Below, piece after piece: positions 2,826 through 46,064 of a stretch of 61,102 nt of DNA. The notes below the pieces were generated by a model. It saw only the letters and a program-made list of their open reading frames with translations. It was not told the DNA's origin and did no database searches. Within the stretch, counting starts at the first letter, position 1, and every line of letters starts with the position of its first letter. A program made the translations under genes and the position numbers. The stretch spans positions 1 through 61,102 of the forward strand of contig MGJF01000004.1 in assembly GCA_001794125.1 (NCBI GenBank), in the 5' to 3' direction. Origin of the DNA: Candidatus Yanofskybacteria bacterium RIFCSPHIGHO2_01_FULL_43_32. Lineage in GTDB: Bacteria > Patescibacteriota > Minisyncoccia > 2-02-FULL-40-12 > GWA2-44-9.

Positions 2826-3227
2826 ATGACGATAAACCCCATTGCACAAGCGATTGTTGATTGGACGAGGCTCAAAATAAAGCTTCATTTTTCAGACCGT
2901 GTTATCTATTTTAAGGAAAAACAAATTTGGTGGATAGCTATCGGACAGAATATTGGAGATGAACAGAATGGAAAGAATTCTAACTTTGAAAGGCCAGTTC
3001 TGGTACTAAAGAAATTTAACATGAATATGTTTTTGGGTGTCCCTATTTCTACTAAGATTAAAGACGACCAATATAAACATATCTTTACCAATAATGGCAC
3101 TCAATTCTCCGCAAATTTATCTCAAATTCGAGTTTTTAGTAGCAAAAGACTTTTACGCAAAGTTGGAGTTATGGAAAATTCTGATTTTGAACAAGTGAAA
3201 GAGGTGCTTAATAGTGGGATAAAATAA
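2826..3227 (+). CDS. PemK/MazF-family endoribonuclease toxin (orphan)
   Basis: IWWIAIGQNIGDEQNGK...RPVLVLKK...GVPIST...QIRVFSSKRL, typical PemK-like motifs; no adjacent antitoxin ORF. Confidence 0.85.
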   Translation: MTINPIAQAIVDWTRLKIKLHFSDRVIYFKEKQIWWIAIGQNIGDEQNGKNSNFERPVLVLKKFNMNMFLGVPISTKIKDDQYKHIFTNNGTQFSANLSQIRVFSSKRLLRKVGVMENSDFEQVKEVLNSGIK

Positions 3228-3279
3228 CGGCTCCCCCTTGCGGGGGAGCCTCGGAACCCTATTTCCAGGGTCAAAATGT
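3221..3279 (-). ncRNA. candidate small RNA convergent on pemK-like gene
   Basis: minus-strand TTGACT(3310-3315)-N18-TATACT(3286-3291) promoter, 5-bp hairpin, then GGCTCCCCC-GCAA-GGGGGAGCC hairpin plus T-rich tail. Confidence 0.55.
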
Positions 3280-3417
3280 ATTTAGAGTATAGCATGTCAA
3301 GCGGTCGGTAGTCAATAGTTATCAACAATTCGTCAAAGTGACATAAAAGCAATGGGACTACGATTTTGACTCTGCCCATCTTTAGATATATAATCATGAA
3401 AAAGATTTAACGTTTTT

Positions 3418-4104
3418 ATGAAATTAAATATTAAAGAACTACTCGATTTTCTTGATGATAAGAAAGATTCCCAAATGGGTGATGCCAATGCCATAATTGC
3501 TGTTCTCGGTGAGGATTTAAACGCTTCTGCATATAAACATTTTAGAGGAGGTAAGGTAGAAATTCTTAATGATTCAGTTCTTCCCGGTACTAATAAGGGT
3601 AAAAGATTAGATCGATGGATATTAGATAAGACTAATAATAATTTATTTCAATGTGAGATTAAGAATTGGGCAGCAACCGCCATTGGAGGTAAGTCATTGA
3701 AATCTGATGCAAGTATTGAAGAAACTAAAAAGATTGTTGAATATTACTGGAAACGCGAATTAAATAACAACCTTTCAAGCAAGGGGGAACACCCAAATGG
3801 TGTTACCAAGGTATTGCTTAAAATGAAACTACCTGACAAGCACAGTAAAATAAAGGTTCAACCGCTACTTATCTATTGGATGCCAATTTCTTCAGATATA
3901 GACGGGTTACATCCATTATCTGTTGTTTCTGTAAAATCACTTCATTTACCAATGGTGACTGAATTTTCAAAACTTTATGTTTTTTCTGTGTCCCTATACC
4001 TTCGCCAGTTGTATAAAAACGGGAAGGGGCAAAAACTTATTGACATAGACACACCACATTTTGAACATAGAATTAAAATATTAAATAAATTGGGGGATAA
4101 ATAA
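3418..4104 (+). CDS. putative PD-(D/E)XK nuclease-like protein
   Basis: RLDRWI...FQCEIKNW resembles the D...E-x-K catalytic motif; own TTGACT-N17-TATAAT promoter. Confidence 0.5.
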   Translation: MKLNIKELLDFLDDKKDSQMGDANAIIAVLGEDLNASAYKHFRGGKVEILNDSVLPGTNKGKRLDRWILDKTNNNLFQCEIKNWAATAIGGKSLKSDASIEETKKIVEYYWKRELNNNLSSKGEHPNGVTKVLLKMKLPDKHSKIKVQPLLIYWMPISSDIDGLHPLSVVSVKSLHLPMVTEFSKLYVFSVSLYLRQLYKNGKGQKLIDIDTPHFEHRIKILNKLGDK

Positions 4105-11100: not shown

Positions 11101-11717
11101 AGAAAGTCTTAGCCGTTGAAGTCGCCCCTTCGGCAGGCTCAGGGCAAGCGGGGGAGAAGAGAGAATACCTCGTGTCTCCTAATATTACTGTTACCGTGGC
11201 GGCCGGCGATTTAGTTACTGTCGGCCAGCAATTGAGCGAAGGCCATGTTGACCTCAAAGAATTATTTAAAACTACCGACAGTATTGATTTAGTTGCAAGA
11301 TATATCATCAAGGAAGTACAGGCAATTTATTCGCCGACCGGAGACAGTATTAACGACAAGCACGTTGAGCTGATAGTCAGACAGATGTTCTCAAGAGTGA
11401 AAGTCCTTGATTCCGGAGACACTGATCTCTTGGCTGGCGATACCGTTGAAAAGAGGACCGCCTGGATTGAGAATGAAAAAGCTAAAGACAACAAAAAGAT
11501 AGAAGCGACATTTGAACAATTATTGCTTGGTATCACCAAAGTATCTTTGACCACCGACAGTTTCCTCTCGGCCGCTTCCTTCCAGGAAACAGCCAGAGTC
11601 CTTATCGATAGCGCAATCCTCGGCAAAGAAGATTACTTAAGAGGTTTGAAAGAGAATGTTATTATTGGACGGTTGATACCGGCGGGGACGGGGTTCGGCA
11701 ACGAAATGGAGGAATAA
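8130..11717 (+). CDS. rpoC: DNA-directed RNA polymerase subunit beta'
   Basis: NADFDGDQM catalytic motif, N-terminal Zn finger, GEPGTQLTMRTFH. Confidence 0.99.
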   Translation: MDLSSIKLKIASPDDIMSWSYGEVTKPETINYRTQKPERDGLFSESIFGPTKDWECYCGKYKRIRYKGIICDRCGVEVTRSIVRRERMGHIKLAAPVAHIWFLRGVPSKVATVLGVSLPELERVIYFASYIITSVNEDLKAEAMKRIESEFKSKLKNSKNAGEEESLKELKDREKNNLKNMLKYQIISELDFRDLSSKYGEVFEASIGAEAVRKLLEELDMEEMLSELEGEAKNESNPLEIRKISRRLKYLKGMIKAGIRPEWAIITILPVIPPALRPMVPLDGGRYATSDLNDLYRRVINRNNRLKHLLELKAPEVITKNEKRMLQEAVDALIDNSMRRGQITTAASTGQKRALKSLADMLKGKQGRFRQNLLGKRVDYSGRSVIVIGPELNLAECGLPKQMALELFKPFVVGILIRKELAHNIKSAGRLIEQETADVWAALEEAMKNKLVLLNRAPTLHRLSVQAFEPILIEGKAIKIPALPTHAFNADFDGDQMAVHLPLTIEAQREAKELMLASHGVLKPATGEPVASPSHDVSFGVYYLTSMSNGARGEGKTFSSRYEALLSFENDLTDLRAKIKVPNPDHQIDDSQPKMIETTPGRMIFNKALPKGHVFVNRTLTKPDLKVIGSDIWDEFGKEATVVFLDKVKDLGFHYATISGISWGMNDLRIPVEKPGIIKEADQKIEENKALYEDGLLTEYERRSKAIEIWNTTKSKLSVLVKKQLNPDDSAFMLVDSKSRGTWGTLDQMMGMRGIFANPAGELIELPVRNSLKEGLTSLEYFISTHGARKGLVDTALKTATAGYLTRRLVDVAQDIVVTEADCKDKEGFVMHAEDGKVSGETLGRRVKGRAVLEDIIGLDGEVIVKKNKIVDKESAKKIETLGLKTIKVRSAIKCKAYTGICQLCYGYDLSKNELVDIGEAVGIVTAQAIGEPGTQLTMRTFHTGGVAGGADITMGLPRVEEIFEARPPTFKALVADVDGKVLAVEDRGKQKVLAVEVAPSAGSGQAGEKREYLVSPNITVTVAAGDLVTVGQQLSEGHVDLKELFKTTDSIDLVARYIIKEVQAIYSPTGDSINDKHVELIVRQMFSRVKVLDSGDTDLLAGDTVEKRTAWIENEKAKDNKKIEATFEQLLLGITKVSLTTDSFLSAASFQETARVLIDSAILGKEDYLRGLKENVIIGRLIPAGTGFGNEMEE
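11126..11145 (+). repeat. in-frame CCTTCG..GGCTCAGG-family palindromic element in rpoC (encodes PSAGSG)
   Basis: matches copies in ssb, groEL and at 54658. Confidence 0.7.
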
Positions 11718-11720
11718 TCC

Positions 11721-11849
11721 GAATAGCTCACACAACCTCTATACGTACGGAGGGAGACACCTTTTTAAAAATTTACTAATTTTGTAAAAAGTGTCTCCCT
11801 CCGCCGGTTGTTTACTTGATAGTTGGCAATTGGCAAGCGAGTTCAAACT
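11721..11849 (+). repeat. long-hairpin element E, copy 2
   Basis: cggagggagacac...gtgtctccctccg stem; immediately after rpoC stop. Confidence 0.85.
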
Positions 11850-11858
11850 AAATATACC

Positions 11859-11886
11859 TCAACGGCTCACACATGTGAGCCGTTGA
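11859..11886. repeat. 28-bp palindrome P28 (TCAACGGCTCA-cacatg-TGAGCCGTTGA)
   Basis: perfect 11-bp arms, 6-bp spacer. Confidence 0.9.
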
Positions 11887-11920
11887 TTTTAGGGTAAGAA
11901 AGTGGGAAGATTGGGAGATT

Positions 11921-12502
11921 ATGGGCGACATGAAGAAGTTAACTGAAGAGATTAGGGTGCATGTTTTTATTGATGCTTCAAACTTATGGCAAGCACAAAA
12001 AGCCAAAGGAAGCATGTTTGATTATGAAAAATTAAAGGCTTTTTTAAAAAATAAATTTACCGCTTCTGAGTTAAAAGTTTTCTATTACACAGCGTATCCA
12101 GCCGAAGGTACTAGGGACTATAGTCTTGATGGAAAACATAAGTTTTTTACCTATCTTAAAAAGGGACTCGGGTTTGATGTCAAAAAGAAAGAGCTAAAAA
12201 GGATAACGACACATAGTGATGCTGGTGATTCGATTCAAGAAAAAGGAAATATGGATGTTGAAATGACAATTGATGTAATACACAATGCTTCTAAATATGA
12301 CATTGCCGTCTTGTTCTCGGGTGATTCTGATTTTTTGGCATTAGTGACCTATTTGAAGAATATTGGTAAAAAGGTTTATATTTTTTCTTCAAAGAACAAC
12401 GTTTCCCAAGAATTAAGAACTGGAGGAGACGGTTATTTTGACGTGTTAAATTTGGAGGAAGATATTTGGCGCAGAGAACTCAAACATCGAGGTAGTAAGT
12501 GA
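11921..12502 (+). CDS. NYN domain (LabA/DUF88, PIN-like) ribonuclease
   Basis: VFIDASN, KGNMDVEMTID, LFSGDSDFLAL acidic motifs. Confidence 0.9.
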   Translation: MGDMKKLTEEIRVHVFIDASNLWQAQKAKGSMFDYEKLKAFLKNKFTASELKVFYYTAYPAEGTRDYSLDGKHKFFTYLKKGLGFDVKKKELKRITTHSDAGDSIQEKGNMDVEMTIDVIHNASKYDIAVLFSGDSDFLALVTYLKNIGKKVYIFSSKNNVSQELRTGGDGYFDVLNLEEDIWRRELKHRGSK

Positions 12503-12577
12503 TAAAAAAGCAACCCTCCTTGCGGAGGGTTGCCCTTAGATGTAATACCCTTTTGGTTCATGGTAGAACCAGAAGAT
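12503..12577 (-). ncRNA. candidate small RNA convergent on NYN gene
   Basis: minus-strand TTGACT(12608-12613)-N18-TATACT(12584-12589) promoter, 10-bp hairpin, then GCAACCCTCC-GCAA-GGAGGGTTGC plus T-run. Confidence 0.55.
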
Positions 12578-12627
12578 GTATAGAGTATAGCATGCCAGCC
12601 GGCCGGCAGTCAATGGTTGTCAACAGA

Positions 12628-12653
12628 TAGCGGCTCATGTAGTGAGCTGTTGA
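12628..12653. repeat. degenerate P28 copy
   Basis: tagcggctcatgtagtgagctgttga followed by ttttaggg, as in other copies. Confidence 0.65.
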
Positions 12654-12685
12654 TTTTAGGGGGAGAAAGTGGGATGATTTAAGAT

Positions 12686-13219
12686 GTGAATGAAGAAAAA
12701 ATTGAGTTACAAAAAAGAGAGTTAGCAGATATCAAGACGTATTTTCTTGACATGGCTAAGTATTCTGATAAAAGACAACATGAGGTTGACGACCACTTCA
12801 CATTTAGTCAATTGACAGTTGCCTCAATCATTTTTGCCCTGTCTCTAAATATTTTAAAAATAGTTGCGGAAAGTTTTATTTGGGTAAGAATATTTTACAT
12901 AGGCGGTCTCGTTTTGTTGTTATTATCGTTGATGTTTGGGGTTATTCATTTTAACATGAAAAATAAGTTTTGGAAGAGTAATGGTTTAAAATTTAGTGAA
13001 GTTTTTAATTTATGGAAGAGCGCGGAAAACAGGTCTTTACTAAGCAAAGACGAGGAATTTATTACCAGCATAAAGATTCAGACAAAATTAGGTGAGAATG
13101 CGATCTTGGGCAAAAAAGATAGCATATCACAAGATGGACGGGCTTCAGATTGGCAATCCATGACCTTAATTTTTGGTGCACTACTCGAAACTATTTCTTT
13201 GATTATTACTATTTTTTAG
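12686..13219 (+). CDS. hypothetical membrane protein (about 3 TM)
   Basis: GTG start; two adjacent hydrophobic helices plus a C-terminal helix; AT-rich island. Confidence 0.75.
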   Translation: MNEEKIELQKRELADIKTYFLDMAKYSDKRQHEVDDHFTFSQLTVASIIFALSLNILKIVAESFIWVRIFYIGGLVLLLLSLMFGVIHFNMKNKFWKSNGLKFSEVFNLWKSAENRSLLSKDEEFITSIKIQTKLGENAILGKKDSISQDGRASDWQSMTLIFGALLETISLIITIF

Positions 13220-13246: not shown

Positions 13247-13274
13247 TCAACGGCTCACACATGTGAGCCGTTGA
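13247..13274. repeat. P28 copy (spacer cacatg)
   Basis: identical to 11859-11886. Confidence 0.9.
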
Positions 13275-13331: not shown

Positions 13332-14345
13332 ATGGAAGATAGTTTAAACAATCATCCCACATATGTGGATCTTTTTAGTGGGGCAGGAGGGTTTAGTTTG
13401 GGATTTGATAATAATGGTTTTATAAATATTTTTTCTGTTGATATGGAGCCTAGTTTTTGTGAGACTTATAGCAAAAATTTTCCAGGGCACAGGTTAATCC
13501 AAAAAGATATAACAAACCTTACTAAGCAAGAAGTTTTAAGCCTTATTAAAGGTAAAAGAATAGATGTGGTTATTGGGGGTCCACCGTGTCAGGGTTTTAG
13601 TATGGCTGGCAATATTGGAAGAAAATTTGTAGACGATTCTAGAAATAGTTTATTAATGGAATTTGCAAGAATGGTAGAAATAATTAAGCCCAGTTATTTT
13701 ATCATGGAAAATGTTGCACGCCTATATAACCACAACAAGGGGAACACCAGAGAAGAGATAGTTAAAAAATTTATTAAATCAGGCTACAAAGTTGACTGTA
13801 GAATTTTAAATTCGGCAGATTATGGAGTTCCACAAATAAGAAAAAGAATTATTTTTGTTGGATCAAGGGTTGGAGGAAAAATATTATTTCCTGAGAGGGA
13901 GGTTGAAAGATATATAACAACGGAGGAGGCCTTAAGAGAATTTACTTCAAAAGATCTCAACAAAGATTCTAACATTTACAACCATGAGACAATGAAACAC
14001 TCAGGTCAAATGTTAAAAAAAATGAGCTATGTATCAGATGGAGGAAACAGGTTCGAGATACCTAGTCACATAAGACCAAAATCAGGCGATGTGAGAAAAT
14101 ACATAAGATATAACAGCAATAAACCATCAATTTGCGTTACTGGTGACATGAGAAAAGTTTTTCACTATTCGGAAAATAGGGCTCTAACTGTTAGGGAGTT
14201 AGCAAAACTTCAGTCATTTCCAAACGATTTTATTTTTGTAGGTTCTCGTATTTCTCAGCAGCAACAAGTTGGTAATGCCGTGCCGCCCTTGATGGCTTCA
14301 GCTATTGCTAGAGTGGTAAAAAAAATGATTAAAAATGATAAATAA
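13332..14345 (+). CDS. DNA (cytosine-5) methyltransferase
   Basis: motifs FSGAGG, GGPPCQGFS, ENV, QIRKR, GNAVPP. Confidence 0.95.
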   Translation: MEDSLNNHPTYVDLFSGAGGFSLGFDNNGFINIFSVDMEPSFCETYSKNFPGHRLIQKDITNLTKQEVLSLIKGKRIDVVIGGPPCQGFSMAGNIGRKFVDDSRNSLLMEFARMVEIIKPSYFIMENVARLYNHNKGNTREEIVKKFIKSGYKVDCRILNSADYGVPQIRKRIIFVGSRVGGKILFPEREVERYITTEEALREFTSKDLNKDSNIYNHETMKHSGQMLKKMSYVSDGGNRFEIPSHIRPKSGDVRKYIRYNSNKPSICVTGDMRKVFHYSENRALTVRELAKLQSFPNDFIFVGSRISQQQQVGNAVPPLMASAIARVVKKMIKNDK

Positions 14346-15348
14346 AGAATTACCCAAGATAAACTTCATAGGAAACAAAGAAAATATTTCCGGATGGATA
14401 TCCAGTTTTTTCCCTGCCGGTATTAAATCCGTGTTTGATGCTTTTTCTGGTGGTGGCTCAATTGGTTATCAAGCAAAAAAAATGGGATTTAGTGTTGTGA
14501 GCAACGATATATTGAGGGTCAATTACTTATTAGCGAAATCACTTATTGAAAACAATAGCGAGATTTTAAATGATTCAGACATAGAGGTTGTATTTAGAGG
14601 GAAACCTTTTCGTGGCTTTATGTTTGAAAATTACTCGAATGTATTCTTTTTTCCAGAAGAATGTATGGAGCTTGATTTATATAGAAAGAATATAGAAGAT
14701 TTATCGAATGAATTTAAAAAGGCCATTGCCATTTCCCTGATTAGGAGGGCGATGGTCAGAAAAATGCCATACTCTAGGTTTAATATAAAATGGGATAAGA
14801 TTAAACAACTAAGAGATGAAGAATATAGCTATAATAAGTATGGTAGACGAAGAGCATATCACAATATTTCTTTTAAGGATCATTTTTTAGAAAATGTTAA
14901 GGATTATAACAATGCAATATTTGATAACAATAAAAAAAATATCGCACTTAATGACGATACTTTTGACTTACTCGGAACAGTTAAGGCAGATTTAATTTAT
15001 CTTGACCCACCATATACGGGAACAATGAACAATTATTTCAGTTTTTATGGGCCACTTGATGAATACATAAGCTCAAAAAAACTAACGCCTTTTAAAAACA
15101 ATTTTATAGACAAACAAACTTCTGTGGCACTATTTGATAATTTATTTTCCAAACTATCAAGCTATAAGTATTGGTTTTTAAGTTATAACAACAGTTCATA
15201 TCCGTCCAAGGAAACCCTAATGGACTTATTAAGTAAGTATTGCAATAATGTTAAGGTTGTTGAAAGAGGACATGAATATAAAATCACAGGCAAAGATAAT
15301 AAACAAAAAAATAAGGAGTATTTATTTATAGCTACCAATATTAAATAA
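14335..15348 (+). CDS. DNA N6-adenine methyltransferase (Dam/FokI-like alpha group)
   Basis: DAFSGGGS motif I and YLDPPY motif IV. Confidence 0.93.
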   Translation: MINKELPKINFIGNKENISGWISSFFPAGIKSVFDAFSGGGSIGYQAKKMGFSVVSNDILRVNYLLAKSLIENNSEILNDSDIEVVFRGKPFRGFMFENYSNVFFFPEECMELDLYRKNIEDLSNEFKKAIAISLIRRAMVRKMPYSRFNIKWDKIKQLRDEEYSYNKYGRRRAYHNISFKDHFLENVKDYNNAIFDNNKKNIALNDDTFDLLGTVKADLIYLDPPYTGTMNNYFSFYGPLDEYISSKKLTPFKNNFIDKQTSVALFDNLFSKLSSYKYWFLSYNNSSYPSKETLMDLLSKYCNNVKVVERGHEYKITGKDNKQKNKEYLFIATNIK

Positions 15349-15357
15349 TAAAACAAT

Positions 15358-16425
15358 ATGACGAGTCAAAATTACGAAGATTATTGGAAGTTAACATTAG
15401 AGTATAGTGATATTAATAGTGACAAATTTTTAGGAACTTTGAGTATAATAGTGAATTTCATAGACAAGAATAGCTCAGAAGAATACTCAAAAGAAAAATA
15501 CGACAGACTACAACAAGAGGTTTTTGACACCTTTCCAAAAGAAGATATGGGCTCTGTTCGTAAAAGTATAAATCAGTTTATTAAACTGGGTTTCATCAAT
15601 TTTGAATTACGGTCGTATCATCCCAACACTAAAGACTTTATTAATGCAAAGACAAAAAGAAAAAGGCAGTCTATTTTTTCAAGGATAGTTTACACAAATT
15701 CAAGTTTTAGTCGTTCTGTTACCAACGATTCGAATGGTCGTGAAATAAATTTTTTGATAAAAACATTAGAAGAAAACGGTAAGTTGCATAAGAGAGACAT
15801 CATATCTCTAATGACAGTAGATGTTTCAGAAATAGCGAGCGGTTATTTAAATAGTCAAGAATTAAGCGACAGAAGGGTATACGCCGAAGAAATCGATTTT
15901 ATAGAAAGAAAATATAATCAAGTTTCTTATTTGTGGGGTGTTTTGGGTAAACTGGATGACCTGATTATAATCGATGATTATTTATATTTTCAAGAAGATG
16001 CCCAAGTAATTCTTGACTCTGAAATTAAGAAGGACAAATTGAGAGACCCATATTTACACAGAATATACAAAAATCAATTAAAAGAAGAAAGCACTGAAAT
16101 TTTAGGTGGTATCAAGTGTATGGTAGAAAAATTAGTCTACCCGACGCTTGTTGCAAGTCACATAAAACCATTTGTCAAATCCTCTGAAGAAGAATCATAC
16201 GATCCGGAAAATGGCTTGTTGTTAAGCCAAAACATGGACGGGCTGTTTGATAAGGGTTACATATCATTTAATGATGATGGGAGTATTATTTTATCAGATA
16301 AATTAGACCCCGAATTAAGAGATTATCTGAGCAAATACGTTCTCGACGGTGTTTTTGTTGGAGCCAAAAGGAAAGAGTATCTGAATTACCATAGAGAAAT
16401 TTTTGGAGAGAGATTGGGTATTTAG
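15358..16425 (+). CDS. HNH restriction endonuclease
   Basis: C-terminal LVASHIKP...ENGLLL...DGLFDKGYISF HNH_2-type domain, directly after two MTases. Confidence 0.88.
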   Translation: MTSQNYEDYWKLTLEYSDINSDKFLGTLSIIVNFIDKNSSEEYSKEKYDRLQQEVFDTFPKEDMGSVRKSINQFIKLGFINFELRSYHPNTKDFINAKTKRKRQSIFSRIVYTNSSFSRSVTNDSNGREINFLIKTLEENGKLHKRDIISLMTVDVSEIASGYLNSQELSDRRVYAEEIDFIERKYNQVSYLWGVLGKLDDLIIIDDYLYFQEDAQVILDSEIKKDKLRDPYLHRIYKNQLKEESTEILGGIKCMVEKLVYPTLVASHIKPFVKSSEEESYDPENGLLLSQNMDGLFDKGYISFNDDGSIILSDKLDPELRDYLSKYVLDGVFVGAKRKEYLNYHREIFGERLGI

Positions 16426-19527: not shown

Positions 19528-19555
19528 TCAACGGCTCACATGTGTGAGCCGTTGA
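19528..19555. repeat. P28 copy (spacer catgtg, inverted relative to 11859 and 13247)
   Basis: tcaacggctcacatgtgtgagccgttga; right edge of the AT-rich island. Confidence 0.9.
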
Positions 19556-26418: not shown

Positions 26419-26446
26419 TCAACGGCTCACATATGTGAGCCGTTGA
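26419..26446. repeat. P28 copy (spacer catatg); left arm overlaps the rpsF -35 box
   Basis: minus strand reads TTGACA-N17-TAATAT toward rpsF. Confidence 0.85.
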
Positions 26447-26455
26447 TTTGTTGCA

Positions 26456-26588
26456 GAATAGTTCACACAACCTCCATGCATACGGAGGGAGACGTCTTTT
26501 TAAAAATTTACTAATTTTGTAAAAAGTGTCTCCCTCCGCTGGTTGCTTTGGTTGTTAAGTGATGATTGGCACTAGAAGGTCAAACTCT
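26456..26588 (+). repeat. element E, copy 3
   Basis: near-identical to copy 2. Confidence 0.85.
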
Positions 26589-26801
26589 CTCTGATATTTT
26601 CAAGTCAAAATTATTACCCCTATGTCCAGTGTAGGGGTAGATTTATTATTTTGGAATACATATCCAATCAACTTCAGCTCTTGATTCGCCTCGTCAAAGT
26701 GATTCGAAATGATGAGGCTGCGCTTGATACTCCAATGCTTGCTTTATTTAAAACATATTGTATAATAAAGTAGCTTAGTTCTTTTAAGGAATGGGTGACG
26801 G

Positions 26802-27389
26802 ATGGGCGAAAGAGTTCTTCATTTTTTGTTAATCAATGGTTATGGATGTCATCTGGACACTCCGCTTGGTCGGGTCTATTTGCCAAGGATGCTGAAATTT
26901 ATCAAAGAGAATGTACCTGACTACATAATTTTGCTTGGTGGTTTTACTCAACGTAAGAGTGCACCGGGTGTTTCGGAAGCCAAGCTGATGTTGACTTGGT
27001 TTTTTGACCAAATGTCTACTCCCGATCAAAAACGTTTTCTGATTGAAGAAAATTCCTATACGACCCTGGAGAATAGCAGGAATGGAGCGATTTTGATTCC
27101 TCGGATTCTTGGTTTAACTATGTCTGATGACCATCTTCCAGAAATTAAAATTACTCATGGTTGTGAAGCAACCCGAGCGGCAAATATAATCATGCTCGAC
27201 CGGTACTTTATGGGTGGTTTGGTTAAATCAATCGACGACATCACTGTTGAGACGGCGAGCTGGGAACGAGCTGACCCGTTCAGACAAGTAAAAACCTTGA
27301 TTCACGATAAGTTGGCAATTACATATCCGTGGCTTGGTCTAGCCGAACGAGAGCGCAGAAAGCGCATCCGCCGTTCTGCAGAGATTTAA
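26802..27389 (+). CDS. DUF218/YdcF/ElyC-like protein
   Basis: LLGG...SEAKLM...IEENSYTTLENS motifs. Confidence 0.75.
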   Translation: MGERVLHFLLINGYGCHLDTPLGRVYLPRMLKFIKENVPDYIILLGGFTQRKSAPGVSEAKLMLTWFFDQMSTPDQKRFLIEENSYTTLENSRNGAILIPRILGLTMSDDHLPEIKITHGCEATRAANIIMLDRYFMGGLVKSIDDITVETASWERADPFRQVKTLIHDKLAITYPWLGLAERERRKRIRRSAEI

Positions 27390-27446: not shown

Positions 27447-27594
27447 TACTTTATTTCAGAAGAGTTTGAATCTTAATTGCCAAATATCAAATATTTACTA
27501 AGCAACCGGCGGAGGGCGTGTGCTTTTTTAAAATTAGTAATATTTTAAAAAAGTGCACCCCGCAGTCATGTATAGAGGTTGTGTGAGCGATTCT
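27447..27594 (-). repeat. element E, copy 4 (inverted)
   Basis: reverse complement nearly identical to copy 1. Confidence 0.85.
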
Positions 27595-44089: not shown

Positions 44090-44221
44090 CAACCTCCATG
44101 CATGCGGAGGGAGACGCCTTTTTAAAAATTGATTAATTTTGTAAAAAGTGTCTCCCTCCGCTGGTTGTTTGGTTAAATAGATGACAACTGGCAATAGAGA
44201 TTCAAACTCTCTTGGAATAAG
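44090..44221 (+). repeat. element E, copy 5 (5' end replaced by CCTGCC palindrome)
   Basis: gcggagggagac...gtctccctccgc stem. Confidence 0.8.
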
Positions 44222-44304
44222 GTGTCATAGAATTCTTCTTTTGACCATAAAACACAACCGTGCTAATATAGACGATAATCTCTGTTCTTTTCCAAGGAGA
44301 TTTC

Positions 44305-44523
44305 ATGAAGCAAGGACTATCATCAAAACGTAAAATCGTAAGAACTTTAGAAGCAGGAATAGTATTAGAGAAAGACATTGTTTTTCCTGCTAGATTGAGT
44401 GCTTCATTTGTTCTTGGGGGATGGTCGAGGATAGCAAATAATAAGAAAGAGTTTCGTGAGTTGCTAAAGACGGGGTTAGAACTTTCTCCCATATCCGAGG
44501 TTTTGATAAAATGGAAAGAGTAA
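44305..44523 (+). CDS. 72-aa hypothetical protein between inverted E copies
   Basis: TTGACC-N17-TAATAT promoter, AGGAGA RBS, downstream hairpin plus T-run. Confidence 0.6.
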   Translation: MKQGLSSKRKIVRTLEAGIVLEKDIVFPARLSASFVLGGWSRIANNKKEFRELLKTGLELSPISEVLIKWKE

Positions 44524-44562: not shown

Positions 44563-44692
44563 GTTTGACCTTTTCTTATCAATTGTCATTTAGCTACCAA
44601 AACAACCGGCGAAGGGTGTGCCCTTTTATAAAATTGCAAGATTTTAGAAAAGGGGCACCCCGCAGCATGCATAGAGGTTGTGTGAACCTATC
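44563..44692 (-). repeat. element E, copy 6 (inverted), overlapping the uvrC stop
   Basis: same conserved flanks as the other copies. Confidence 0.8.
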
Positions 44693-46064
44693 TTAGATAT
44701 TTTCTGTGCAGTTTTCTGTAATATCCAATCGCGAAGCGATGGGCTTCGCTATCAATGGCAAGGAGGAGGTTTCTGTCGGCGGGGGAGAGTTTGGTTAGGG
44801 GAACGGTTCGCCATCCGCCCGAATTGGCGGAGGCGGATTTTCTGCCCGGGACAATCAGCTGGTGGCCCATGTGGCGCTCGTTTTTGGAAATACCGATAAT
44901 TTGAATTTTGATGGCCAGTTTTTTGAGTGTTTTAACTGCCGCACTAACCTGACCCTTGCCCCCGTCAATAAGTATCAAGTCCGGGAACGGCCATTCTTCG
45001 TGCCGGAAACGCCGTTCAAGTATTTCGCGTAGCATTGCCGTGTCGTCGGGAGTTTGTTTGGTATAAATCTTAAACTTTCTGTAAAAATTCTTATCCGGCT
45101 GGCCGTGAACGAATGTAACCATGGAGCCGGTGGCATGGGCGCCTTGAATATTGGAAACATCGTAACCTTCTATACGGACTATTGGTTTTTGCAATTTTAG
45201 CAAAGATTCCAATCCGGAATGTTGGGTTTTTAAAATGTCGGAGCTTTTTATTATTCTGGAATTCTCGAATATTTTTTCCAATTTTGTTATTTTGTCGCGC
45301 AACTCTATGGCTTTTCCAAAGTCGTCTTTTTTAGCGGCATTGCCGGCCTCTTTCCCGAGTTCTTTTACGAAAGAATTCTTTTTCCCGTTCAATATTTCCC
45401 TGACAGCATTTATGTTGTCTGCGTATGCTTTTTTGTCTTTGCTTGAAGTTCCTGATTTTAAACAGCAAAATCCCAAACACTTTCCAATGTGGTAATTAAG
45501 ACAGCGGTTGTGATGAAGCTGTTTACAGGTGCAATATGGAAAAACCGAGCGCAGAAAACGCAGGGTTGTTTTTAAAGCGCCCCCGTCAGTAAAAGGACCT
45601 ATGAAATGTGTATTAAACAAACGAGGGGTGGCCCGAGTGGGGACCCCGGTCGCGTGGAGGTCTAGCAAGACCGAACCCGTCCGGGGTGATGAGGGGCAGG
45701 CCCCCGAAGTCCGTGTTTGATGAGTGATAAAAATCTTTGGGAAATTTTCATTACTGAAGCCGACATAAAAATACTGTTTGTCATCCCGCATCACGATATT
45801 GAACTGCGGGCGATATTTTTTTATCAATTGTGATTCAAGTATTAATGCCTCAATATCCGATTGAGTAGAAATAAATTTCAACGTTTGAGACAACCCCACC
45901 ATTTTTTTAATTCTAAAATCTTTCGTTTTTAAATACGAACCAAGCCGGATTTTTAAATTGGAGGCCTTGCCTATGTACAAATATTTTTTGGCATCCTTGA
46001 ATATGTAAATTCCCGGGTTGGACGGTAGTTTCGGTATGTATTTTTTGAGCGCGGCTTGATTCAT
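44688..46064 (-). CDS. uvrC: excinuclease UvrC (short, no HhH; two in-frame insertions)
   Basis: PGIYIFK..YIGKASNL GIY-YIG, CTC..CLNYHIGKC, UVR domain, RIEGYDVSN, LILIDGGKGQ. Confidence 0.92.
   Translation of the reverse strand: MNQAALKKYIPKLPSNPGIYIFKDAKKYLYIGKASNLKIRLGSYLKTKDFRIKKMVGLSQTLKFISTQSDIEALILESQLIKKYRPQFNIVMRDDKQYFYVGFSNENFPKIFITHQTRTSGACPSSPRTGSVLLDLHATGVPTRATPRLFNTHFIGPFTDGGALKTTLRFLRSVFPYCTCKQLHHNRCLNYHIGKCLGFCCLKSGTSSKDKKAYADNINAVREILNGKKNSFVKELGKEAGNAAKKDDFGKAIELRDKITKLEKIFENSRIIKSSDILKTQHSGLESLLKLQKPIVRIEGYDVSNIQGAHATGSMVTFVHGQPDKNFYRKFKIYTKQTPDDTAMLREILERRFRHEEWPFPDLILIDGGKGQVSAAVKTLKKLAIKIQIIGISKNERHMGHQLIVPGRKSASANSGGWRTVPLTKLSPADRNLLLAIDSEAHRFAIGYYRKLHRKYLR

Follow-up and report, generated by a model that had tools for sequence, protein, structure and literature searches.

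Type I toxin–antitoxin (TA) systems usually combine a hydrophobic toxin peptide of fewer than 60 amino acids with an antitoxin that is an antisense RNA pairing with the toxin mRNA; enzyme-like toxins also occur in type I, in SymE/SymR and RalR/RalA. Convergent antitoxin RNAs that overlap the 3′ end of the toxin gene are found in par of pAD1, where Fst RNA I and RNA II have a common bidirectional terminator, and in the B. subtilis loci txpA/RatA and bsrG/SR4. In type III systems, the RNA gene precedes the toxin gene within one transcript, behind a terminator. Solitary MazF-family toxins normally require a neutraliser, and PIN-like nucleases are able to cut DNA. Type III antitoxin RNAs contain tandem repeats (PMC8860590). 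The DUF3800-associated, drum and skipping-rope RNAs are structured, carry intrinsic terminators, are each associated with one protein family and have unknown function (Weinberg et al. 2017, PMC5737381). Bacterial LabA-like NYN proteins are functionally unstudied, and toxicity has been demonstrated for none of them (PMC5499597).

The window analyzed here is the whole stretch of 61,102 nucleotides. It comes from a bacterium of the candidate phyla radiation (CPR) and contains two unrelated RNase genes, NYN and PemK, each followed by a small RNA (sRNA) element on the opposite strand. About 170 related loci, among them all 87 NYN loci and most of those with PemK, show convergent pairing of this kind. 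Judged from sequence, the pair would constitute an RNA-controlled RNase module, probably antitoxin-like. The module is absent from the publications found, none of which describes the NYN or the PemK RNA.

Features of the Two Loci

Coordinates are those of the window.

2826–3227, plus strand: PemK/MazF-family RNase gene, 133 amino acids, without an adjacent antitoxin ORF (Pfam PemK_toxin, 2.7e-12)
3222–3279, minus strand: PemK-associated sRNA, ∼58 nt, ends predicted (fold z −4.4); its parts are a 5′ single-stranded leader UACAUUUUG, hairpin P1 (3256–3271), UUCCGAG, terminator P2 with GCAA loop (3229–3250) and then GUUAUUUUA
3286–3327 including the box, minus strand: PemK sRNA promoter, −10 TATACT with TG (3286–3291) and −35 TTGACT (3310–3315)
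3319–3327: DnaA-box-like site TTATCAACA at the PemK sRNA promoter, one mismatch
11721–11860, plus strand: element E, copy 2, a genome-specific repeat outside the RNase–sRNA module
11859–11886, plus strand: palindrome P28, genome-specific, overlapping a weak promoter-like TTGATT-N17-GAAGAT (11883–11911)
11921–12502, plus strand: NYN (LabA-like, PIN-like fold) RNase gene, 193 amino acids (Pfam NYN, 1.2e-22)
12505–12577, minus strand: NYN-associated sRNA, ∼73 nt, ends predicted (fold, covariation, CM R1)
12551–12575, minus strand: 5′ hairpin P1 of the NYN sRNA (fold)
∼12534–12551, minus strand: conserved single-stranded linker GGGUAUUACAUCUAAGGG of the NYN sRNA
12510–12533, minus strand: terminator P2 of the NYN sRNA with GCAA loop, then a U-run (12504–12509)
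12584–12613, minus strand: NYN sRNA promoter, −35 TTGACT (12608–12613), 18-nt spacer, extended −10 TGcTATACT (12584–12592)
12617–12625: DnaA-box-like site TTGTCAACA, two mismatches to TTATCCACA, 3 nt upstream of the NYN sRNA −35

The sequence-only reading had described each RNase gene as being followed by a minus-strand RNA with an inner hairpin, a GCAA-capped terminator and a TTGACT-N18-TATACT promoter with TG, and this description was accurate for both loci (promoters reading from 12613 to 12584 and from 3315 to 3286).

Both proteins are putative RNases, having RNase-family domains and, for NYN, conserved catalytic residues. The product of 11921–12502 scored 81.4 bits against the NYN profile PF01936 (cut-off 24.2), and the catalytic residues D18, D112, E114, D118, D135 and D137 are the majority residue across the homologue sequences (83/83). 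A total of 2227 homologues were found, the best 120 of the 2227 being 73–100% identical. The subfamily is a tight cluster, with at least 66% identity among fetched loci, and plasmid-borne relatives in cultured bacteria reach at most 34%. Amino-acid identity across classes is about 72%, which is unusually high for a toxin. The AlphaFold model has a pLDDT of 76.7; its nearest PDB entry is 2qip (TM 0.61/0.72), and it weakly resembles T5 flap endonuclease. Note that 2qip, the sole result of the structure search, is itself of unknown function. In fold and catalytic Asp set the protein matches the LabA-like NYN proteins (COG1432; 2qip); no cognate RNA has been reported for any bacterial member.

The PemK protein matches PF02452 over profile positions 3–106 of 109 and keeps the conserved Gly/Glu/Arg-Pro motifs, which places it in the PemK/MazF family; 238 homologues were found. 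Neither a MazE-like nor any other conserved upstream protein was present in 77 homologous loci, where the upstream position held no ORF (24 loci), large unrelated ORFs (29) or small mutually unrelated ORFs (24, none belonging to an antitoxin Pfam family). In the window itself, element E fills the 215 nt upstream of PemK, and no MazE/PemI gene is adjacent.

Comparison with Described Systems

Like type I systems, these loci have a predicted small RNA whose own strong promoter faces the 3′ end of the would-be toxin gene, with a shared or overlapping terminator; the RNA is ∼60–75 nt long with two hairpins, and the module is compact and moves horizontally. Unlike type I toxins, the proteins are RNases of 133 and 193 amino acids rather than small membrane peptides. 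Without read-through of the mRNA, only the terminator hairpin overlaps, and the conserved complementarity to the translation start that most type I systems have is missing, as is any in the CDS or 5′ UTR. Moreover, the primary sequence of the RNA is conserved far beyond the needs of antisense pairing.

Type III systems (ToxIN, CptIN and TenpIN) resemble the loci in joining an endoribonuclease-family protein to a non-coding RNA that the protein would recognise, possibly through a substrate-like single strand exposed on the RNA, and in their link with defence neighbourhoods. They differ in that the RNA here is single-copy, downstream, on the opposite strand and under its own promoter, with no repeats seen on reading the sequences, and in that the folds are NYN/PIN-like and a PemK matching canonical MazF instead of the ToxN/AbiQ type. 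With type II MazEF/PemIK the window PemK shares a full-length PF02452 match, but a conserved sRNA gene lies beside the PemK homologues and a MazE/PemI-like gene is absent. The DUF3800-associated RNAs can likewise sit on the opposite strand, and they too combine several RNA structures with one protein theme; here, however, the proteins are NYN and PemK, and the RNA position is strictly fixed, convergent and right after the stop codon.

The NYN-Associated RNA in Homologous Loci

The association of NYN gene and RNA is evident in linkage, strand, structure, promoter and terminator signals, and selection on the RNA sequence. We examined 87 NYN loci (the window plus L001–L086), of which 83 are unique. 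In all 87, the sRNA element lies on the opposite strand within ∼130 nt after the stop codon. CM R1 scores 88.2 bits at 12500–12579(−) in the window. Each locus gave exactly one full-length CM match (71–98 bits), always antisense to NYN; these matches fall on the model's own training sequences and thus speak for uniqueness per locus rather than independent detection. The CM scan, covering 524 kb, revealed no additional copies, and the PemK loci had none.

The NYN sRNA of the window folds with −33.8 kcal/mol (z −5.9). Covariation in the aligned 3′ regions supports the fold: 12 helix pairs show compensatory changes, and base pairing is retained in 95.6% of cells versus 84.8% in shuffles (0/500 shuffles reached 95.6%) and 39–63% in slid controls. 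RNAalifold independently gave the same two helices, with a terminator stem longer by two pairs. The strand is indicated by 131 G-U cells, with 95.6% paired on the sRNA strand versus 88.5% on the other, and by the U content of the 8 nt following the terminator (6.5 on the sRNA strand versus 3.2 on the other). A protein-coding reading of the region was rejected on the grounds that loop length changes by non-multiples of three; the small ORFs at 12499–12630 and 12433–12561 are not conserved.

By consensus scan, the NYN sRNA promoter (10/12 plus TG) outscores every other site in the NYN region. A match of at least 8/12 occurs at the same fixed distance in 82/83 homologous loci, and in 71/83 the −10 ends exactly 6 nt before a conserved GUCU. 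The linker and upper P2 are kept at pairwise identities of 0.93 and 0.94, compared with 0.43 for third codon positions in the neighbouring CDS. Homologue comparison found no patch of synonymous-site conservation anywhere in the NYN CDS, and no 5′ UTR upstream of NYN is conserved between genomes. This makes it unlikely that the RNA pairs with a conserved site in the NYN mRNA and favours recognition by protein. One candidate pairing site for the linker, an 11/12 match at 12272–12283, was rejected as within chance and not conserved in other loci. The sequence-only reading had entertained an RNA-guided function; with variability confined to a base-paired part of the RNA, this is unlikely. At some loci the CDS extends across the RNA region or has its stop codon within the stem.

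The NYN module occurs in unrelated contexts, such as McrBC, between hsdS and hsdR, and between an M24 peptidase and RecJ. Many copies are in operons beside housekeeping genes, and many NYN genes begin 10–20 nt after another CDS. The 141 neighbouring ORFs gave 147 Pfam families, with restriction-modification domains as the most frequent recurring neighbours (N6_Mtase, HSDR_N_2 and Eco57I, 7 each; ResIII, 3; Methylase_S, 2), and the window copy adjoins two methyltransferases and an HNH gene. One carrier is an isolate of Bacteroidota, Niastella vici (L024). These unrelated contexts, together with the Bacteroidota carrier, indicate that the module moves horizontally. No phage match to it was found; three 16-mer matches in IMG/VR were attributed to chance, being inside CDSs and scoring 15–18 bits with the CM or not at all.

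The PemK-Associated RNA

The PemK RNAs form a different family, composed of a WUACAAAUGG leader, P1, CUCCGAG and a terminator. In the window, the RNA folds with −31.1 kcal/mol (z about −4.4), and its predicted 3′ end overlaps the PemK stop codon. The two-hairpin layout was recovered in 36/41 homologous RNAs by per-sequence folding instead of column-wise covariation, hairpin lengths being too variable for reliable alignment. CCGAG and CG are invariant, and the leader UACAAAUGG is nearly so. The window promoter (10/12) is second-best in the PemK region, behind an 11/12 site on the plus strand. Convergent promoters were found in 66/84 PemK homologues, compared with 18/83 in a same-strand control. 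The earlier proposal of a cognate, structured sRNA gene convergent with each RNase gene thus holds in 87/87 NYN loci and in most PemK loci, the latter with an RNA family of their own.

Upstream Repeats, Shared Flank and DnaA Boxes

Element E (∼145 nt) has six copies in the window, at 2626(+), 11721(+), 26456(+), 27593(−), 44090(+) and 44694(−). P28 is a perfect palindrome found at about 11860, 13248, 19529 and 26420 (0 expected), and a P28 half-site joined to a 38-nt promoter-like segment occurs at 2777, 11875 and 12642. The sequence-only reading had made E, P28 and the promoter a frame belonging to the system. We discard this idea: E and P28 are in 0 of 170 other related loci, and both occur near genes other than RNases. 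The copy of the 38-nt segment at 12642–12679 precedes a non-RNase membrane ORF (12686–13219), and E or the P28 half-site also adjoins a DUF218 gene (26802–27389) and a small ORF near 44306. Plus-strand promoters had been assigned to both RNase genes; that of PemK (TTGATT-N17-AATAAT) passes the consensus scan at 9/12 and that of NYN (TTGATT-N17-GAAGAT) fails it.

The conserved flanks reported earlier are real, with 56 nt at 79% identity (3272–3327 versus 12570–12625), but what they share is the −10 and −35 of the sRNA promoters plus a degenerate DnaA-box-like site. AGAGTATAGCATG was found exactly twice (0.66 matches expected), and AGTCAANNGTTNTCAACA was found twice (0.11 expected).

Exact DnaA boxes are ∼70- to 170-fold enriched just upstream of the NYN and PemK sRNA promoters. 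Among NYN loci, 23/83 have an exact box no more than 60 nt from the −35, with 39 boxes in 507 kb overall, and the spacing to the −35 is most often 2–3 nt. For PemK, exact boxes occur at 9/66 promoters, with 16 boxes in 228 kb overall. The boxes of the window are degenerate (one mismatch for PemK and two for NYN), and boxes with one mismatch are not enriched in the window.

Transcript and Database Searches

Three metatranscriptomes of the source study yielded nothing for window positions 11700–12700, and a search for RNA runs on the Niastella locus found none. Contigs from unstranded RNA runs, found via the conserved RNA core, cover homologous loci from the end of the CDS into the RNA region; because they extend beyond the predicted 5′ end of the sRNA, read-through mRNA or contaminating DNA could be their source. 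At gathering level, Rfam gave no matches in the window and none at the RNA positions of 20 loci. The best sub-threshold match was DUF3800-I (RF02969), at 21.9 bits versus a gathering score of 44.2. The sub-threshold matches (DUF3800-I, Phe leader and others) look like noise driven by the terminators.

Proposed Mechanism and Alternatives

An RNA-antitoxin-like role remains the best reading of the module. We are evenly divided between belief and doubt that the window contains two instances of a compact, mobile unit in which a cognate convergent sRNA would neutralise its RNase. The sRNA would be transcribed convergently from its own strong sigma-70-type promoter, with a terminator abutting or overlapping the RNase stop codon. 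It would be made in excess from this near-consensus promoter, the RNase having no conserved promoter of its own. The linker, the upper terminator stem, the PemK leader and CCGAG...CG are near-invariant while the stems merely covary, which makes direct recognition by the RNase most likely. The sRNA may thus enter a type III-like RNA–protein complex with its RNase, possibly as a pseudo-substrate, and 3′ antisense overlap with read-through RNase mRNA could add a type I-like layer. The DnaA box touching the −35 in many lineages may couple sRNA synthesis to DnaA and hence to replication status. For the module we infer that the sRNA is transcribed, that the RNase is toxic and is bound and neutralised by the RNA, and that DnaA exerts control. 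Doubtful as a whole, though worth stating, is the broader proposal of a new TA-like class, in which a single-copy convergent sRNA binds and silences its cognate RNase. Such a class would have been adopted independently by NYN and MazF/PemK folds, would use a DnaA-gated promoter so that the RNase is freed when initiator activity changes, and would be widespread in CPR/Patescibacteria and transferable to other phyla.

The RNA might instead be a functional partner, either a substrate matured by the RNase or the scaffold or cofactor of an RNP acting on other RNAs, for example in defence. The strict linkage and joint high conservation of RNA and protein fit this account, as do the restriction-modification genes that are the commonest recurring neighbours (including the methyltransferases and HNH gene beside the window copy), the DUF3800-I score and the comparison with the unexplained protein-associated DUF3800, drum and skipping-rope RNAs. 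We nevertheless think it unlikely: variable positions are locked in stems, leaving no guide-like variable single strand, a strong conserved RNA promoter set against no conserved protein promoter suits an antidote made in excess, and a solitary MazF-family toxin normally needs a neutraliser, none being protein-encoded. Rather unlikely, too, is purely cis-antisense or transcriptional control (interference, RNase III cleavage of the overlap, or insulation) with no specific RNA–protein recognition. The convergent layout and common terminator hairpin would suit it. Since the plus strand has no U-run (3.2 U in 8 nt), RNase transcription probably continues past the hairpin and gives mRNA complementary to the sRNA; the loci with a stop codon in the stem or a CDS through the RNA region, and the RNA-run contigs crossing both, agree with this. 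Such control does not require primary sequence to be kept, yet the linker and upper P2 are 93–94% identical against 43% at synonymous positions, P1 is maintained by compensatory changes although it is outside the terminator function, and each RNase family has its own RNA family.

Two further accounts fare worse. In one, very improbable, the hairpins act as DNA: they would be where the NYN nuclease recognises or targets a selfish mobile unit that it moves or cuts, as at homing-endonuclease sites, or would form the end of that unit, as subterminal hairpins do in the IS200/IS605 type. Presence in many unrelated contexts, Niastella vici among them, the capacity of PIN-like nucleases to cut DNA and the weak likeness to T5 flap endonuclease would be in keeping with such an element, but conservation is confined to one side of the gene with nothing kept upstream, and no direct repeats, target duplications or gene-less copies were seen. 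Furthermore, the 131 G-U pairs, the strand asymmetry, the U-run terminator and the promoter at a fixed 6 nt from the conserved 5′ end are features of an RNA gene. That E, P28 and the upstream promoter form, with the downstream sRNA, one cassette platform for swapping RNases is hardly credible. Upstream of each window RNase gene there is indeed a copy of E, a full or half P28 site and a 38-nt segment that is similar in the two; against this stand the lack of E and P28 in the related loci (0/170), the unrelated sequence upstream of homologous NYN genes, and the same repeats before the membrane ORF (the segment) and beside the DUF218 gene and small ORF (E).

Significance

The two RNA families are new to Rfam, one of them with textbook covariation, and Niastella vici DJ57 is a culturable carrier open to direct tests. 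If the antitoxin-like reading is true, RNA-antitoxin biology would extend to a layout outside type I and type III. Bacterial LabA-like NYN proteins, a large family without studied function, would gain a concrete and testable partner. The link to DnaA boxes, if real, would tie RNase control to replication status in hosts with minimal regulatory repertoires, and the module would account for how CPR bacteria tolerate solitary MazF-family toxins without a protein antitoxin.

RNase genes and convergent RNA units in the window

The window, from a Patescibacteria (CPR) contig, carries rodA, rpoB and rpoC and has matches in groundwater and soil metagenomes. Two RNase-family genes were examined together with the predicted small RNA (sRNA) at the 3' end of each.

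Features of the RNase regions (window positions)
2826-3227, +, PemK/MazF-family protein, 133 aa (Pfam match 2.7e-12)
3222-3279, -, predicted PemK sRNA
11921-12502, +, NYN-domain protein, 193 aa (Pfam PF01936, 1.2e-22)
12505-12577, -, predicted NYN sRNA
within 13332-16425, C5 cytosine methyltransferase (5.5e-78)
within 13332-16425, D12 N6-adenine methyltransferase (5.3e-30)
within 13332-16425, HNH_2 protein (1.3e-08)

The restriction-modification (R-M) cluster at 13332-16425 lies directly 3' of the NYN module, which makes the region downstream of rpoC an accessory or defence islet. The NYN structure model (pLDDT 76.7) has one convincing structural neighbour, the uncharacterised LabA-like 2qip; the function of bacterial LabA-like NYN proteins is unstudied (PMC5499597). 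All canonical acidic residues are kept in 83/83 sequences, and the protein looks catalytically competent.

Promoters were scanned for consensus matches. Directly 3' of each RNase gene, the minus strand contains TTGACT-N18-TATACT with a preceding TG; among the promoter-like sites it ranks first around NYN and second around PemK (10/12). Both predicted transcripts fold into an inner hairpin and a GC-rich terminator with a GCAA loop, followed by U-rich sequence (NYN, -33.8 kcal/mol, z -5.9; PemK, -31.1 kcal/mol, z about -4.4). The two promoter regions are 79% identical across 56 nt, and AGAGTATAGCATG (0.66 matches expected) and AGTCAANNGTTNTCAACA (0.11 expected) occur only there. Of the upstream promoters in the sequence-only reading, the plus-strand one before NYN fails the consensus scan; the rest of the observation was confirmed.

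Directly past the PemK sRNA promoter, a near-consensus promoter (TTGACT-N17-TATAAT, 11/12, 3366-3394, +) precedes a 228-aa ORF (3418-4104) for which no Pfam or PADLOC match was found.

Linkage of the RNA to NYN homologues

At E<=1e-5 we obtained 2227 NYN homologues, the best 120 of which are 73-100% identical. They span many CPR classes, including Moranbacteria, Nomurabacteria, Magasanikbacteria, Saccharibacteria, Doudnabacteria and Falkowbacteria, and one comes from a Bacteroidota isolate:

NZ_LVYD01000041.1 3001-3684, Niastella vici DJ57 module (NYN 76% amino-acid identity, RNA 91.6 bits)

This copy is evidence that the module has been transferred beyond the CPR. Gene contexts are unrelated (by McrBC; between M24 peptidase and RecJ; between hsdS and hsdR of a type I R-M operon). 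The 141 immediate neighbours were assigned to 147 Pfam families; the commonest recurring kind is R-M and the rest are mostly housekeeping.

The same element was found within 130 nt past the NYN stop codon in 87/87 loci (83 unique). On the NYN strand it consists of an A-run, an RCCCTCC-N4-GGAGGGY stem, CCTTGGATGTAATACCCT, a variable hairpin, AGAC, and the reverse complements of the -10 and then the -35. No conservation was found 5' of the NYN start across these loci, and in many of them 10-20 nt separate NYN from a preceding CDS. A covariance model built from A2, an alignment of 83 sequences, detected one full-length copy per NYN locus (71-98 bits), antisense to NYN in every case. A second copy was absent from the 524 kb, and PemK loci gave no match. 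Scores are 88.2 bits for the NYN copy in the window and 15 bits for the PemK RNA. Because the model was built from the same sequences, these matches show uniqueness and specificity, not independent discovery.

Structure and selection of the NYN RNA

Structure statistics were calculated from A2. In the two-helix structure 95.6% of cells are paired, versus 84.8% in shuffles (0/500 reach 95.6%); compensatory change occurs in 12 pairs, and doubly changed cells number 196 versus 70 expected. Sliding the partners reduced pairing to 39-63%. RNAalifold independently gave these helices and lengthened the terminator stem by two pairs.

The predicted RNA gene lies opposite to NYN, its strand being fixed by 131 G-U cells, by pairing asymmetry (only 88.5% of cells paired on the NYN-sense strand) and by the U-run (6.5 U in the 8 nt past the terminator, versus 3.2 on the opposite strand). 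A sigma-70-type promoter of at least 8/12 precedes it in 82/83 loci, most commonly with TTGACT or TTGACA, TATACT and a spacer of 16-17 nt; in 71/83 the end of the -10 lies exactly 6 nt ahead of a conserved 5' GUCU.

Third codon positions in the neighbouring CDS have a mean pairwise identity of 0.43; the values rise to 0.93 for the single-stranded linker of 17 nt (GGGUAUUACAUCCAAGGG) and to 0.94 for the upper stem of the terminator (CCCUCC/GGAGGG). The RNA sequence itself is under selection. The NYN CDS has no stretch of raised synonymous-site conservation and the NYN loci no common 5' UTR, which makes it unlikely that the NYN mRNA contains a conserved site for base pairing. For an invariant linker that is inherited in every case with a single, highly conserved protein, the NYN protein would be the most parsimonious reader.

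DnaA boxes at the sRNA promoters

In 23/83 NYN loci the 60 nt upstream of the sRNA -35 contain an exact DnaA box, TTATCCACA, usually 2-3 nt from the -35 and in one orientation; all 507 kb of NYN loci contain only 39. For PemK the values are 9/66, with 16 boxes in 228 kb. Enrichment is roughly 170-fold (NYN) and 70-fold (PemK). Exact boxes are absent from the window, where one-mismatch boxes are at chance level; the corresponding sites there, TTGTCAACA and TTATCAACA, are degenerate and each 3 nt from the -35. The "conserved flank" gtcaat.gtt.tcaaca of the sequence-only reading thus corresponds to the -35 plus this DnaA-box-like site.

PemK homologues and their RNA

We collected 238 PemK homologues, mostly 45-60% identical, and examined four contigs and 80 metagenome loci. 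A convergent promoter was found in 66/84 unique copies (same-strand control, 18/83), its -10 ending 15-150 nt past the stop codon (median 58). In 36/41 folded sequences the RNA has a single-stranded 5' leader of ~9 nt (WUACAAAUGG), a short P1 hairpin very variable in sequence and length, CUCCGAG, a variable terminator and CGUUUU; CCGAG and the CG ahead of the U-run are invariant. In one subclass the ORF extends through the RNA region. The predicted PemK RNA differs from the NYN RNA; each RNase has its own.

No conserved protein antitoxin was found beside PemK in 77 copies. Upstream there were no ORF (24), large unrelated genes (29) or small ORFs (24), the last mutually unrelated and without MazE, AbrB or RHH family matches.

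One metagenome contig (k141_197281, 1-2500) has three tandem PemK genes, each with its own convergent sRNA unit. Immediately past the PemK sRNA promoter of a CPR contig (locus L087) there is a LOOT RNA (RF03000; 2593-2706, 73.7 bits versus a gathering score of 46.4). Single-stranded UACA(U/A) is exposed in both RNAs (NYN linker 12539-12546, PemK leader 3272-3279; alignments A2 and A5), and ACAU is invariant in the NYN RNA. UACAU and ACA are cleavage motifs of characterised MazF enzymes. The motif could be a pseudo-substrate, module cross-talk or coincidence.

Element E and P28

Repeats in the window (positions)
2626-2771, +, element E
11721-11860, +, element E
26456-26590, +, element E
27448-27593, -, element E
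44090-44223, +, element E
44563-44694, -, element E
11859-11886, 13247-13274, 19528-19555 and 26419-26446, P28 perfect palindrome
2777-2814 and 12642-12679, P28 half-sites

The upstream repeats noted earlier do exist. Element E (~145 nt, six copies) forms a long A/T-centred hairpin with compensatory differences between copies (GGGAGACAC/GTGTCTCCC versus GGGGTGCAC/GCACACGCCC). In two places an inverted pair of E encloses one small gene (DUF218, 26802-27389; an ORF near 44306-44522). The element may be MITE-like or may be a terminator/promoter repeat. The 28 nt of P28 form a perfect palindrome, TCAACGGCTCAC-N4-GTGAGCCGTTGA, in four copies with none expected; its right half overlaps a TTGATT -35, and it looks like an operator or REP-like hairpin common to several accessory genes. 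These include the C5 methyltransferase gene and the non-RNase membrane ORF 12686-13219, which also follows the half-site and promoter segment at 12642-12679.

The E core and P28 are absent from all 170 loci of other genomes. The proposal that an E/P28/promoter frame belongs to the module fails on this count, and because the elements also lie beside the membrane ORF, DUF218 and the small ORF. E and P28 are repeats specific to this genome, their place before both RNase genes being incidental to the module.

Possible mechanisms

We give about an even chance to an RNase paired with a cognate neutralising sRNA, because RNase and RNA are strictly linked, the RNA promoter is near-consensus and conserved while the RNase promoter is not, the MazF-family toxin lacks any protein antitoxin, and exposed RNA parts are constrained at the sequence level. 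Unstranded contigs from RNA runs cover homologous loci, which is compatible with expression, not diagnostic. That the RNA is instead a partner or cofactor in an RNP is rather unlikely; the RNA-guided role suggested earlier is itself unlikely, given that the nucleotides that vary lie in base pairs.

Slightly less probable than an RNP is a purely cis-antisense or terminator function. Some antisense effect is probable because the RNase-sense strand has no terminator U-run, yet a pure function of this kind leaves the RNA sequence constraint unexplained. We consider a DNA-level end of a mobile element very improbable, as it clashes with the RNA-type signals and the one-sided conservation. A platform based on E, contradicted by its occurrence in 0/170 loci, is hardly credible.

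Comparison with known systems

Closest in architecture are the type I loci par Fst/RNA II, txpA/RatA and bsrG/SR4, in which convergent RNAs have a common terminator. The logic is closest to that of type III systems, in which a protein-binding RNA accompanies an RNase (PMC8860590). Among unexplained precedents, the closest are RNAs described by Weinberg et al. 2017 (PMC5737381), which are associated with proteins and end in terminators. For each of toxin-antitoxin types I, II and III, at least one defining feature was lacking. Searches of the available literature returned nothing relevant on RNA antitoxins together with NYN or LabA, on CPR MazF with an sRNA, or on a DnaA box together with an antitoxin sRNA. 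For these reasons we file the window modules as RNA-controlled RNase modules with two new RNA families, their function being predicted. The cultured Niastella vici DJ57 is a practical experimental host.
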